This document shows, one piece after another, positions 6,287 to 38,292 of a DNA stretch of 41,286 bases; the stretch's first letter is position 1, and every line of letters starts with the position of its first letter. Source of the DNA: a virus (lineage: Duplodnaviria; Heunggongvirae; Uroviricota; Caudoviricetes); the IMG/VR virus record IMGVR_UViG_2565956711_000007; one strand, 5' to 3'. A program made the position numbers and the translations under genes. The notes under the pieces are model-generated. The model saw only the letters and a program-made list of their open reading frames with translations. It made no database searches and was not told where the DNA came from.

Positions 6287-6572
6287 TACTGATAGCGCCA
6301 TAGCGTGAGCGGTAATTACGCAGGCGCGGGTCAATTTCAGGGAAGTGGGTATATGTGGCTTTGCGGAATGGTCGGATTGATGTCTGGTAAATTCGCTCGC
6401 GTTCTTCTTTCTCTGCAAGCCATATACAGTGACGAAATTCCTTTTCCTCTTTCGTTTCCTGCGGTAGCGACATTATCCGATCGTAGTTTTTTCTGAATTT
6501 ATCCAGCACCTCCGATACGGAATTGCCGGAACAGCGGCGCGCGTCGTCCGCACCATACAGAGGCGCTGGCAT
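6279..6572 (-). CDS. Hypothetical protein
   Basis: 97 aa; AGGAG 6 nt upstream of ATG 6572. Confidence 0.55.
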
Positions 6573-6585
6573 GATTTTCTCCTGA

Positions 6586-7065
6586 TTAAATTGCGTGAAT
6601 AGCGTGACGAGGGAAGGGGAGAGTTACTGGTTCCTCGTCTGGGTAGATAGGTTTGTTATGTTTGTGCCACTCGACATGACATGACTTGCAGAGCCACATC
6701 ACATCGGTTGGTTTGCTGTAGTCGCAGTGGTGCGCCTGTGGTTTACATTCTGATCCGCAGCACTCACATTGTGGTGGTCGGATTAGCTTACCGTCGCGCA
6801 AAAAATTACCCACAATGATGTGGGCTTTTCTTTTCCATGGGTTGCTCTGAATGAACCGCTTTTTGGCTGCGTTACACCGTTCTCTTCCGCGTTCCGATGA
6901 TTGATATTCTCTCCTTGCTGATACTCGATGTGGCAATCCAGCGCGTTCTTTGTCGTATTCAGCCAGGCAAGCCCGGCAAGCGGCAGTTAATCCATCTCTG
7001 GATGCTCTTCTGATTTGAAAGTCCCTTTCTTCCTTCTGTTGATGGCATCTTGAGCAGACTTTCAT
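6586..7065 (-). CDS. Putative HNH-type endonuclease / zinc-finger protein
   Basis: 159 aa; multiple CxxC pairs and HHCDY....WLCKSCHVEWH motif typical of HNH; AGGAG 6 nt upstream. Confidence 0.5.
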   Translation of the reverse strand: MKVCSRCHQQKEERDFQIRRASRDGLTAACRACLAEYDKERAGLPHRVSARREYQSSERGRERCNAAKKRFIQSNPWKRKAHIIVGNFLRDGKLIRPPQCECCGSECKPQAHHCDYSKPTDVMWLCKSCHVEWHKHNKPIYPDEEPVTLPFPRHAIHAI

Positions 7066-14872: not shown

Positions 14873-15718
14873 ATGACGCTGGATGAAAAGATCTCCCAAC
14901 TGGAGAAAAAACTTGCAGAATTGAGTTCTCCGCCAATTGCTATCGAGCATACAGCTGTAGAAATTGGCACTGGCATCTGTGAAAAACACGGTGAGTTTGA
15001 GCAGCGTAACCGTTACTCGACTGGGCCAATTAAGTTTGCCTCAAGACCTAGCGAATGCCCGGAATGCATGGGAGATGAGCTTATTCGGCTACAGGCAGAG
15101 AAGATTAAAATCGACGAGGAATCACGTAAACGAAATGTCGATTTTTTGTTGAATAATCTTGATATTCCTGAACGATTCAAGGGTTGCACACTACAGAACT
15201 ACGAGCCAGTCAACGACGATGCAAAGAGAGTGCTCAGGGTGTGTCAGGCATACGCCAGCAAATGGCCTGAGAGGTTACAGAAAGGCGGTGGGCTGGTTAT
15301 GTGTGGAAAGCCTGGTACTGGAAAGAATCATCTTGCACTGGCTATCGCCCGGCACGCAATTACGGAACATCAAAGCTCAGCTATTTTCACAACGGCGCTG
15401 AAAATTGCCAGAGAATATAAATCAACATGGTCGAAAAACTCCACCCGCACAGAGGATGAAGTGATCCTACAGTTCACTAAACCTGACCTGCTAATTATCG
15501 ATGAGGTTGGTGTGCAGTTTGGAAGCGAGGCGGAAAAGATGATCATGTTCGAAATCATCAACACCCGCTACGAGCGCATGAAGCCAACAATCCTGATTAG
15601 CAACCAGAGCAAAGATGAACTGTCTGCATTCATTGGTGAGCGTGTTATTGACAGAATGAATGATGGCGGCGGATGCACCCTTGCGTTTACATGGGATAGT
15701 TACAGGAGCAGATCGTGA
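14873..15718 (+). CDS. DnaC-like helicase loader (IstB/AAA+ ATPase) replication protein
   Basis: Walker A GKPGTGKN, Walker B LLIIDEVG; N-terminal Cys cluster; ATG 14873 with AGGAG 5 nt upstream, overlapping O stop. Confidence 0.85.
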   Translation: MTLDEKISQLEKKLAELSSPPIAIEHTAVEIGTGICEKHGEFEQRNRYSTGPIKFASRPSECPECMGDELIRLQAEKIKIDEESRKRNVDFLLNNLDIPERFKGCTLQNYEPVNDDAKRVLRVCQAYASKWPERLQKGGGLVMCGKPGTGKNHLALAIARHAITEHQSSAIFTTALKIAREYKSTWSKNSTRTEDEVILQFTKPDLLIIDEVGVQFGSEAEKMIMFEIINTRYERMKPTILISNQSKDELSAFIGERVIDRMNDGGGCTLAFTWDSYRSRS

Positions 15719-16005
15719 CTGGAAAAGAAATCATCCTGGAATATCTGAAAACTCATGAACAATTCTCCCCACATGAATTAGCACTGATCACCGGAATACC
15801 AAATAACAGAATCGCTCAAGCAGCAAGGCATATGGTGAAACAAGGACATTTGAGTGTTGTTGAGCGTAAGTGGAAGACGGTTATTTATGCAAAACGCAAA
15901 GTGAAGAAGGAGCCAATTAAAAGAAATCCAGATGGTACGGGGTGGGGATGTGCAAATCCAATGACGGCGTTTATTAATAGGGCGCTTATGGAGGTAAGGC
16001 AATGA
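15715..16005 (+). CDS. Hypothetical protein (possible winged-helix)
   Basis: 96 aa; GTG start overlapping the preceding stop, AGGAG upstream. Confidence 0.5.
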   Translation: MTGKEIILEYLKTHEQFSPHELALITGIPNNRIAQAARHMVKQGHLSVVERKWKTVIYAKRKVKKEPIKRNPDGTGWGCANPMTAFINRALMEVRQ

Positions 16006-16331
16006 CCATCTACATCACTGAGCTAATAACAGGGGCCACTTACACAGTGGCCTTTTTATTTGAGGATAGAGATATGCCAAAGAAATATGACATGTATGAC
16101 TTGAGACAAATTCTTGAAGAAATGCGCGCCTACAACCCAAAGGCAGATGAGTATGGTGGGAAACACATTATACCCGGCTGGGCTGATCGTATCGAAGTTG
16201 CACTGAATCGGATGAATGCTGGCACATGCCAAAGATGCAACGGAACCGGAATGGAAGATAGCGGCGGAGTCCAACCATGGGGCGAGCCAATTCTTATTGA
16301 GTGTCAGTGTTGCGGAGGGAATCAATCGTGA
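16002..16331 (+). CDS. Hypothetical Cys-rich protein (start 16002 or 16074)
   Basis: ATG 16002 has GGAGGT SD; alternative ATG 16074 has GAGGA SD and follows a terminator-like hairpin. Confidence 0.5.
   Translation: MTIYITELITGATYTVAFLFEDRDMPKKYDMYDLRQILEEMRAYNPKADEYGGKHIIPGWADRIEVALNRMNAGTCQRCNGTGMEDSGGVQPWGEPILIECQCCGGNQS
16034..16057 (+). terminator. Terminator-like hairpin (tR2-like position)
   Basis: GGCCACT / AGTGGCC stem, 5-nt loop, then TTTTT. Confidence 0.45.
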
Positions 16332-16543
16332 AAGTTAAAACAGCAGAGCTGAGCGAAAAGCAATCAAAACATCTTTTTGAGCAATGGTTTGAAAGAACAT
16401 TTCGTACGCACATTAAAGAAAGAGCGCTACCTGCGATTGAACAACGCAAGCTGATGACCATGGCATGGTTCGGGTGGAGTGAAAGAAGCCTGTTGGGCGA
16501 TGAGGTAGACATTCCCGATGAGCTGATGGAGGTGGGAGAGTGA
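16328..16543 (+). CDS. Hypothetical protein
   Basis: GTG 16328 overlaps previous stop (GTGA) with GGAGGG upstream. Confidence 0.45.
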   Translation: MKVKTAELSEKQSKHLFEQWFERTFRTHIKERALPAIEQRKLMTMAWFGWSERSLLGDEVDIPDELMEVGE

Positions 16544-16758
16544 CTTGCATCAGAATACCTGGCGGAATTATTACTCTGAATGATTCCTACCGACTGCGCC
16601 TTGAAGATGGAACTTGTGTCTTTATGAGTTGGCATCATTACTGCGGTCCTGAGTTTTACAGAGACAGAAGCGAGCGCAGATATATCGATGAGTGGTGGGA
16701 AAATCCGCTAATTGTCAAAGCACTCGATTGGTTTGTTGGTCGCGGTGAAAAAGCATAG
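16540..16758 (+). CDS. Hypothetical protein
   Basis: GTG 16540 overlapping previous stop; GGAGGTGGGAG upstream. Confidence 0.45.
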   Translation: MTCIRIPGGIITLNDSYRLRLEDGTCVFMSWHHYCGPEFYRDRSERRYIDEWWENPLIVKALDWFVGRGEKA

Positions 16759-16788: not shown

Positions 16789-17067
16789 ATGGAAGAGTCA
16801 CGGAAACAGTTTGAGCAGGAGATTAACAAAAAGTTTGGCGACCTTATCGACCAGCGTATCTGCAAAAATAGCGATGGCGATTATATGGCGTGGGATATGC
16901 AGGTAGCATGGTGGGCATGGCAGGCAAGCAGGCGGGCTATTGCGGTAAACCTCGGAAAGCCGATTTATGTGAAGCATAACGGTGACTATATCCATGCATG
17001 GCCAGCTTATAACGTTGATATAGCCATACGCGCCGCTGGTCTTACAGTAAAAGGGGACAGCAAGTGA
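16789..17067 (+). CDS. Hypothetical protein
   Basis: ATG 16789 preceded by GGAGGGG. Confidence 0.5.
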   Translation: MEESRKQFEQEINKKFGDLIDQRICKNSDGDYMAWDMQVAWWAWQASRRAIAVNLGKPIYVKHNGDYIHAWPAYNVDIAIRAAGLTVKGDSK

Positions 17068-17339
17068 GCGAGTTGAAACCTTGTCCGTTTTGTGGGAGCT
17101 CTGTGAAATGGTGTGGTGAGCATGAGCATGACCCATCAGATAATCATCTTTGCGATCATATTCAATGCACAAATGAACATTGCAGGGCTGATTTTAGCTT
17201 TATCTATGGGAATGATCTTCTTCCAGATGACTGCGAAGATATGTCACCAGAAGAGATGATGGATATTTTTCGCAAAAAAGCAGTTGGTTTGTACAACCAA
17301 AGGTCCAGCCATGAAACAAACAATCTTCCTTCGAAGTAA
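17064..17339 (+). CDS. Lar-like putative restriction-alleviation zinc-binding protein
   Basis: 91 aa; N-terminal LKPCPFCG motif plus further Cys/His; family recalled from memory. Confidence 0.45.
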   Translation: MSELKPCPFCGSSVKWCGEHEHDPSDNHLCDHIQCTNEHCRADFSFIYGNDLLPDDCEDMSPEEMMDIFRKKAVGLYNQRSSHETNNLPSK

Positions 17340-17664
17340 GCAGCAACAGCAGTCAGCAATAAACGCCATCCTCGCATCACCCCTCGACACCGACAAACCA
17401 GTAACCATCCGCATCTCCGACTACAAGCGCAACCTTGACCAGAACGCAAAATTTCACGCGATGCTGGCGGATATCGCACGTCAGGTTCAATGGTGCGATA
17501 AATGGTTAAAACCAGAACAATGGAAGGTTTTGTTGATCAGCGGTCATGCAGTGGCAACAAAGCAGGAAGCTGATGTTTTGCCCGGCCTTGAAGGCGAATA
17601 CGTCAACATTCGCGAAAGCAGCGCGCAGATGAGTGTGAAGCGTATGGCAAGTCTGATCGAGTAA
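17311..17664 (+). CDS. ninB: NinB-like recombination protein
   Basis: Motif DQNAKFHAMLADIARQVQW resembles recalled lambda NinB (DQNRKLWACLGDVSRQVEW). Confidence 0.7.
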   Translation: MKQTIFLRSKQQQQSAINAILASPLDTDKPVTIRISDYKRNLDQNAKFHAMLADIARQVQWCDKWLKPEQWKVLLISGHAVATKQEADVLPGLEGEYVNIRESSAQMSVKRMASLIE

Positions 17665-17955
17665 ATGGCTAATCTACGCAAAGAAGCACGTGGCAGAGAA
17701 TGCCAGGTACGTATTTACGGCATATGCAATGGCAATCCTGAAACTACAGTTCTGGCACATTACCGGATGGCTGGAATTTGCGGAACGGGAATGAAGCCGG
17801 ACGACCTGATCGGCGCATGGGCTTGTAGTGACTGCCACGCGGAGATCGACCGACGCACAAGGATTCTCGACAACAAAGACGCCAGACTTTACCACCTCGA
17901 AGGCGTGATCAGGACGCAGGCGATACTGCTGAAGGAGGGGAAGATTAAGCCATGA
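17665..17955 (+). CDS. ybcO: YbcO-like (DUF1364) putative nuclease
   Basis: 96 aa; RGRECQVRIYGICNGNPETTVLAH and CSDCHAEIDRR motifs match recalled DLP12 YbcO. Confidence 0.7.
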   Translation: MANLRKEARGRECQVRIYGICNGNPETTVLAHYRMAGICGTGMKPDDLIGAWACSDCHAEIDRRTRILDNKDARLYHLEGVIRTQAILLKEGKIKP

Positions 17956-38191: not shown

Positions 38192-38292
38192 CAAAACAGT
38201 GAAGCCCCAACTGCTGGAACAGTCAGGGCTTCGGTATCAACAAAACTTACGAGGTATTATTGATATGTCAAGCTTAGCAAAGTCAACTGTAA
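38192..38292 (-). ncRNA. Predicted sar-like antisense RNA covering the ant ribosome-binding site
   Basis: Minus-strand -35 TTGACG (38321-38326), 16-nt spacer, extended -10 TGcTATTAG (38299-38307); hairpin 38201-38232 then U-rich tract. Confidence 0.35.

Follow-up and report, generated by a model that had tools for sequence, protein, structure and literature searches.

A divergent acidic protein of the prophage nin region, probably a member of the Lar zinc-ribbon family

We analyzed a stretch of viral DNA of 41,286 nucleotides (nt) (IMG/VR record IMGVR_UViG_2565956711_000007, Caudoviricetes; hereafter the window, meaning the whole stretch) and focused on a small Lar-like gene on its + strand (17064-17339). 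The window is a P22/lambda-like prophage with N, cI/cro/cII, O, a DnaC-type loader, nin genes, Q, lysis genes, sar and Abc2, the P22-type anti-RecBCD protein. The Lar-like gene lies between a gene of the phiTE_015 family and ninB, and its open reading frame (ORF) translates into 91 amino acids (aa), MSELKPCPFCGSSVKWCGEHEHDPSDNHLCDHIQCTNEHCRADFSFIYGNDLLPDDCEDMSPEEMMDIFRKKAVGLYNQRSSHETNNLPSK. Based on the ORF, on Pfam, PHROG and NCBIfam scans, on homologues and on the ratio of nonsynonymous to synonymous substitution rates (dN/dS), we describe the product as an acidic, predicted zinc-ribbon protein and a probable, divergent member of the family PF14354. An earlier sequence-only reading, made by a model, had proposed a Lar-like anti-restriction protein from an N-terminal LKPCPFCG motif with additional Cys and His residues. 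Those features are present: the motif occupies residues 4-11, and the protein has seven Cys (7, 10, 17, 30, 35, 40, 57) and six His.

The overlap with the upstream gene that had been described was also found. The GTG start codon (17064-17066) and the TGA stop codon of the upstream gene (17065-17067) together form the tetranucleotide GTGA (17064-17067, + strand). This layout is typical of translational coupling, and the Lar-like gene is probably coupled to the upstream gene. Direct reading of the sequence shows a Shine-Dalgarno-like AAGGGGA 6 nt 5' of the GTG (17051-17057, + strand), a plausible candidate for the ribosome-binding site. We took the GTG at 17064 as the start because the ATG starts of homologues align there: for the homologues whose DNA was compared (the set used for dN/dS), the N-terminus aligns residue by residue with their ATG starts. 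Some gene callers use a shorter start, the GTG at 17103, which gives a form of 78 aa. We rejected this form because it would lose the invariant C7, P8 and C10, because residues 4-13 are conserved and because the homologues checked begin at the aligned ATG.

The ORF is a genuine small phage gene. Its full-length relatives fall into 17 clusters at 90% identity and come from Escherichia, Atlantibacter, Enterobacter, Citrobacter, Proteus, Providencia and Serratia. dN/dS was 0.069 against an Enterobacter homologue (81% amino-acid identity, with synonymous sites near saturation) and 0.165 between the Proteus-phage and Providencia-phage homologues. These values (0.07-0.17) indicate that the gene is under strong purifying selection.

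The conserved residues outline the architecture of the protein. The first zinc knuckle, C7-P-F-C10 (17082-17093, + strand, as are all segments below), has C7, P8 and C10 invariant in 17 homologues and aligns with the CPFC of RalR, the Lar protein of the Rac prophage. The second knuckle, C35-T-N-E-H-C40 (17166-17183), has C35, N37 and C40 invariant and aligns with the CxxC of the Lar family. Between the two lies an insert, W16-C17-G18...H28-x-C30-x-H32 (17109-17159), a putative second metal site that is specific to one branch of the family and absent from RalR. In this insert W16, C17, G18, E19, E21, P24, D26, H28 and C30 are invariant in the 17 homologues, and H32 is conserved in at least 90% of them. 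C7, C10, C35 and C40, together with C17, H28, C30 and H32, make eight potential ligands, which is probably enough for two metals. A second, acidic insert covers residues 48-68 (17205-17267); it has a net charge of -8 and a conserved LLPDD...EE pattern, and it appears as a gap in hhalign alignments, being missing from the short members of the Lar family. A predicted C-terminal helix (residues 62-82, 17247-17309) follows and ends in Y77-N78-Q79-R80; R70, N78 and R80 are invariant, and the motif is also placed by the alignments described below.

An AlphaFold2 model built on the alignment of 17 sequences was confident, which adds to the case for a real gene: it had a mean predicted local distance difference test (pLDDT) score of 85.7 and a predicted template modelling (pTM) score of 0.72. 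It contains short strands at residues 14-16 and 33-35 and the long C-terminal helix at 62-82, and it is disordered from residue 85 (pLDDT < 50 at residues 85-91). We found no solved structure related by sequence. Foldseek returned a best E-value (E) of 0.64 against the PDB; against viral models the best match was named "Restriction alleviation protein" and was weak (E 0.05, prob 0.95). We found neither a nuclease fold nor a match to the HNH / beta-beta-alpha-metal nucleases. An IBR/RING-like double zinc domain was considered and rejected because the matches to the Ariadne RING2 (E 1.1) and to the zinc-binding region of Emi2 were not significant; we take from them no more than the suggestion that two metals could be bound by eight ligands.

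The overlap with the ninB start, also part of the sequence-only reading, is real: the ninB ATG lies at 17311, so that 29 nt (17311-17339, + strand) are common to both genes. These 29 nt code for the tail of the Lar-like protein (residues 83-91) and its stop codon. The tail is unconserved among homologues, which end differently, and its pLDDT shows that it is not confidently modelled. Nucleotide similarity of 92-93.5% to coliphages (HK620, H-19B, HK633 and others) spans 17311 to 17663 and stops just before the end of the ninB stop codon (17662-17664). Because this homology starts exactly at the ninB ATG, the final 29 nt of the Lar-like ORF are part of the ninB module, and the 3' end of the ORF is a mosaic joint. 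The functional part of the protein comprises about 82 residues.

A homology search was the check that the sequence-only reading had named, and a family match was obtained. With the single sequence as query, Pfam PF14354 (Lar_restr_allev) scored 28.6 bits, which is exactly its gathering score (28.6), and the match spans profile positions 2-35 of 58 only, the N-terminal half. PHROG 599 ("Lar-like restriction alleviation protein") matched residues 2-87 with an E of 2.5e-7. All 17 members of the window's subfamily matched PF14354, the best with an E of 5.2e-9. The C7-x2-C10 and C35-x4-C40 pairs are invariant in the subfamily and aligned to the knuckles of the family, and the (W/F/Y)N-x-R motif of the family is present as Y77-N78-Q79-R80, with N78 and R80 invariant, at the end of the predicted helix.

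An exhaustive profile search over 1.84 billion representatives yielded 57 proteins at E <= 1e-3. Thirty short ones among them form one branch with the consensus CPFCGG...WCG.....D.H.CH.I.C..CG..F........WN.R, hereafter the 'WCG' branch. Every one of these 30 members matches PF14354 (best E 2.6e-14), and the intermediates P0032 and P0036 do so over the entire profile and above the cut-off. hhalign aligned the window's subfamily to this branch at 99.8% (E 9.5e-30) over 75 columns, with RFNxR placed on WNxR. The branch in turn aligned to the RalR clade at 97.6% over 60 columns, full length and including WNKR. Y77-N78-Q79-R80 is therefore aligned to the WNxR of the family and, one step on, to the WNKR of RalR. 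We consider it very probable from these comparisons that the window protein belongs to the Lar zinc-ribbon family PF14354; its membership is supported transitively only, via intermediate profiles.

Direct comparisons with Rac Lar/RalR speak against a close relationship. Two NCBIfam models fell far short of their cut-offs: TIGR03655 (anti_R_Lar) scored 17.2 bits where 39.6 is required, and NF007260, the equivalog model for RalR, scored 12 bits where 113 is required. BLASTP against the RalR of Escherichia coli K-12 (read from the genome) aligned only eight residues, LKPCPFCG with VKPCPFCG. A homology search that started from RalR failed to retrieve the window's Lar-like protein, and the profile-profile alignment of the window's subfamily with the RalR clade reached 82.7% over 16 columns, at the N-terminus only. 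The proteins also differ in charge: the window protein has an isoelectric point (pI) of 4.87 and a net charge of -9, whereas RalR has a pI of 9.1 and a net charge of +5. This difference holds beyond the two sequences, with a pI of 4.3-5.3 in the window's subfamily, 9.1-9.4 in the RalR clade and 8.8 in a lambda-type Ral (taken from the ET479 prophage). RalR is shorter (64 aa compared with 91 aa) and lacks both the extra Cys/His cluster (WCG...H-x-C-x-H) and the acidic insert. Its gene adjoins recT in a leftward operon of Rac, whereas the window gene lies in the nin region, in a rightward operon.

Rac Lar/RalR and the window protein also have features in common. Each is a small phage-encoded protein that has a (K)PCPFCG knuckle near its N-terminus, another Cys pair some 20-28 residues later and, at the C-terminus, a helix that ends in (W/Y)N-x-R, and both are encoded in early operons of enterobacterial lambdoid prophages. 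Through the two alignments, W50-N51-K52-R53 of RalR corresponds to Y77-N78-Q79-R80 of the window protein, which places Q79, a variable position in the subfamily, at the position of K52. From the differences in score, charge and sequence we conclude that Rac Lar/RalR and the window protein are not orthologous.

The full architecture is shared by the short PF14354 members with the 'WCG...HxCH' pattern (for example P0032, P0036 and P0040; 67-80 aa). They are similar over their full length, include the second Cys/His cluster as well as (W/F)NxR at the C-terminus, and are mostly acidic (median pI 4.9). They differ in their second knuckle, which is C-x2-C where the window's subfamily has C-x4-C, and they lack the acidic insert of about ten residues ('LLPDD...') that precedes the helix in the window's subfamily. 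The alignments thus place the window protein in a distinct acidic 'WCG' branch and, within it, in a subfamily with the extra 'LLPDD...EE' insert. In NCBI and UniRef, this exact sequence and most of the subfamily already bear the name "Lar family restriction alleviation protein". The label that the sequence-only reading arrived at is thus the existing database annotation, and in this respect the finding is an ordinary one.

The Lar-like module is also found inside larger proteins. Nine representatives of 230-380 aa (P0018-P0026) hold the module of about 80 aa internally, with E from 1e-28 to 1e-31. They start with 'MTTITKE...', and the linkers AAMLQGSQPVSNRDELP / 'GNSPVIPD' flank the module. 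After the module comes either DUF551 or a dATP/dGTP pyrophosphohydrolase domain (PF04447), and the latter has matches to phage proteins that are annotated as EaA. These proteins resemble the modular early proteins of EaA type from P22-like phages (DUF550/PF04447, DUF551), in which the module is internal, whereas in the window it is a free-standing gene. We did not find the fused form in deposited phages nor in 29 genome loci: a first genome scan for it turned up patterns but no confirmed relative, and a second yielded just the pyrophosphohydrolase part, none of the 29 loci having a Lar-like module. The representatives indicate that multi-domain early proteins are a second setting in which the Lar-like module circulates, there as a cassette.

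To place the gene in its context we compared 30 homologous loci, which were drawn from phages, prophages and viral contigs and include L014, a locus of the window's own phage. All 30 have the homologue in a lambdoid nin region and on the same strand, with the replication genes to one side of it and the Q antiterminator to the other. The immediate neighbours vary. About 13 of the 30 loci have ninB no more than about 1 kb downstream, and in the Serratia loci other genes separate it from the Lar-like gene. We found no promoter-like or terminator-like sites in or opposite the Lar-like gene of the window, and for this reason we read it as a gene carried along in the delayed-early rightward operon and no self-contained cassette. 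About 14 E. coli contigs encode the identical protein, which lies between a phiTE_015-family gene and ninB in all six of the loci listed, and among 5426 complete E. coli genomes one (ET479) carries the gene.

What the protein does is less clear than where it belongs. Of the earlier claim, the family part stood, by the PF14354 score, PHROG 599 and the chain of profiles, whereas the anti-restriction function did not gain the same standing, as distant membership is all that leads to it. The reasoning is that Rac Lar, like lambda Ral, alleviates EcoKI restriction. For Rac Lar, alleviation of EcoKI restriction and enhancement of modification go back to King & Murray 1995, as cited in PMC3177214, PMC2993543 and PMC12707154. 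The Ral protein of lambda and P22 (66 aa) is likewise a small early lambdoid protein, and it has a published phenotype like that of Lar, alleviation of type IA restriction together with enhanced modification; it has no sequence relationship to the window protein, and it is a basic protein whose gene neighbours N in the leftward operon. On balance, we tentatively regard restriction alleviation as the likeliest single role of the window protein.

The gene is transcribed with the delayed-early rightward (nin) operon and is probably translated in coupling with the upstream gene. In the proposed role, the product would be a small, metal-stabilized protein-binding module that acts as Lar and lambda Ral do. 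It would bind a type I restriction-modification enzyme of the host, the bound enzyme would shift from cutting towards methylation of unmodified phage DNA, and replicating phage genomes would thereby become protected. Because the gene lies between the replication genes and Q, it would be expressed early, along with replication, as unmethylated DNA appears. A tblastn search over the whole window found no homologue of lambda Ral, so that a Ral-like role would not otherwise be covered in this phage. That the Lar-like protein cuts DNA itself is unlikely.

Several observations weigh against restriction alleviation. Only one member of the family, Rac Lar, was ever tested for it, its mechanism has been called unknown (PMC3177214), and our search of the literature found no experiment on the acidic 'WCG' branch. 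RalR has since been reported to be a DNase toxin, an activity that competes with restriction alleviation (PMC4041452). The low scores in the direct comparisons with RalR, the opposite charge, and the extra Cys/His cluster and insert, all described above, count on the same side. The sister prophage of E. coli ET479 has a Ral-family gene (L001 154-354, leftward operon) in addition to the Lar-like gene, which argues against simple redundancy of the two. A Lar-like gene of phage Bas63 was important on hosts without an intact type I system (PMC11482910).

Some of these observations also speak for another explanation, namely that the protein is a counter-defence or host-takeover module directed at some other host enzyme or defence rather than at type I restriction, in which case the 'Lar' label would be misleading. 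The conditional essentiality of the Bas63 gene was unrelated to intact type I systems (PMC11482910), and ET479 already has Ral. The charge of the window protein is opposite to that of both RalR and Ral, it has the extra putative metal site, and eight of its invariant residues (E19, E21, P24, D26, H28, N37, F44 and F46) are without a counterpart in RalR. In P0018-P0026 the module is embedded beside PF04447 (EaA-like) or DUF551. Nothing points positively to any particular other target, however, and the conserved (W/F/Y)NxR helix, which RalR also has at its C-terminus, suggests that the two proteins have a functional surface in common. PADLOC and anti-defence families gave no significant match either; a weak PADLOC hit to PtuB (E 0.0067) was attributed to Cys/His composition. 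We regard this explanation as possible but doubtful. With the same reserve, the acidic 'WCG...H-x-C-(H/D)-H' branch as a whole, with its eight conserved Cys/His ligands, may be a portable two-zinc protein-binding module of lambdoid phages, functionally distinct from Lar/RalR, that is free-standing in nin regions or carried in cassettes of EaA type and has a target other than type I restriction.

An accessory role in phage recombination or replication, together with NinB/Orf or with other proteins of DNA metabolism, is suggested mainly by neighbours. ninB is directly downstream in the window and near in the 13 or so loci mentioned above, Lar stands next to recT/recE in Rac, where ralR adjoins recT, and one DnaE1 polymerase has a Lar-like domain fused in place of its C-terminal domain (PMC3919608). 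These associations are not stable: the neighbours vary, many loci are without a nearby ninB, and the Serratia gene stands apart from it. In the window itself, the adjacency is a mosaic joint rather than a conserved pair, with homology that starts at the ninB ATG. We consider this role unlikely.

The DNase activity of RalR raises the further question of whether the window gene encodes a toxin of that type, a small Mg/Ca-dependent non-specific DNase that may be checked by an antisense or trans-acting small RNA (sRNA). The two proteins have their Pfam family in common. In RalR, changes at positions 14, 37, 39, 49, 51 and 52 lower toxicity (PMC4041452); R49, N51 and K52 lie near or in WNKR, of which N and R are invariant in the window's subfamily as N78 and R80. 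Yet the position of K52 is taken by Q79, and K52Q is an inactive RalR mutant in which DNA cleavage is abolished (PMC4041452). The NF007260 score of 12 bits against 113 also speaks against a RalR-type toxin, as does the net charge of -9, which is unfavourable for DNA binding where that of RalR is +5. The gene has no promoter inside it on either strand and is probably coupled within an operon whose other members are ordinary nin genes. Near it there is no Rfam sRNA; the Rfam scan of the window matched only sar and thus no RNA like RalA, the small antitoxin RNA of the type I toxin-antitoxin pair RalR-RalA, although whether RalA has an Rfam model is unconfirmed. We therefore judge a RalR-type toxin to be improbable. 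A role in transcription, as a zinc-ribbon factor or as a protein that binds RNA polymerase (Ogr/Delta or Elf1 type), is very improbable, as it drew generic and insignificant zinc-ribbon matches only.

In practical terms the gene carries little weight, being one more accessory "moron" of the mosaic nin region. It does call for caution with the label, because the name "restriction alleviation" has spread over a large family from a single experiment of 1995. The founding protein of the label has eight contiguous residues in common with the window protein and was later described as a DNase toxin. The acidic, probably two-metal branch is a lead for finding out if function follows from the family name. 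It could offer another way into the question of how proteins of Lar and Ral type push type I enzymes towards methylation, or its probable second metal site, acidity and insert could mean a different target.

The gene directly upstream (16789-17067, + strand) starts at an ATG at 16789 and encodes 92 aa. The ORF, the PHROG scan and the compared loci assign it to PF26207 (Phage_phiTE_015) / PHROG 343; the Pfam scan of the window did not report PF26207 for it. A phiTE_015-family gene is directly upstream of the Lar-like gene in two of the 30 compared loci, L014 and L015, and the L015 relative is 31% identical. In Serratia prophages a member of the family lies elsewhere in the nin region. We considered whether this gene and the Lar-like gene form a two-gene system and rejected the idea, because beyond the six E. 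coli loci a relative directly upstream was found in L015 only.

Downstream, ninB (17311-17664, + strand) encodes an Orf-family recombination mediator with a Pfam NinB match from residue 1 (E 3.4e-46). The window carries a C-terminally truncated allele of 117 aa that ends in 'MASLIE*'. The full-length allele of sister prophages has 136 aa ('...MASLIEYTTAWAIGQGVRFTDRRYE'), that is, 19 more residues at the C-terminus. At the junction, GAGTA|AATGGCT, ninB is fused straight to the TAA-ATG of ybcO/DUF1364 (17665-17955). From the sequence, this looks like a deletion of the 3' end of ninB together with ninE, ninF and an ORF of 70 aa, which are present in L006/L008. Because the truncated allele recurs in L005, L007 and L014, it is inherited and no assembly error.

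The Lar-like ORF of the ET479 prophage (L001, NZ_CP100950.1) lies at 6525-6800 and is unannotated; the match covers 860 bases against 861 in the query, and several phage genes beside it are flagged as frameshifted. Both observations suggest sequencing indels and no real pseudogenes.

The sole Rfam match in the window is the sar antisense RNA (RF00262, 58.4 bits; 38198-38263, - strand), a marker of the P22-type immI/ant region. Upstream of the phiTE_015-family gene, four small overlapping nin ORFs on the + strand (15715-16005, 16002-16331, 16301-16543 and 16540-16758) encode 96, 109, 80 and 72 aa, respectively, and gave no significant match to Pfam or PADLOC. The protein of 109 aa ends in a zinc-finger-like C-terminal Cys cluster, CQRCNGTG...CQCCGG.
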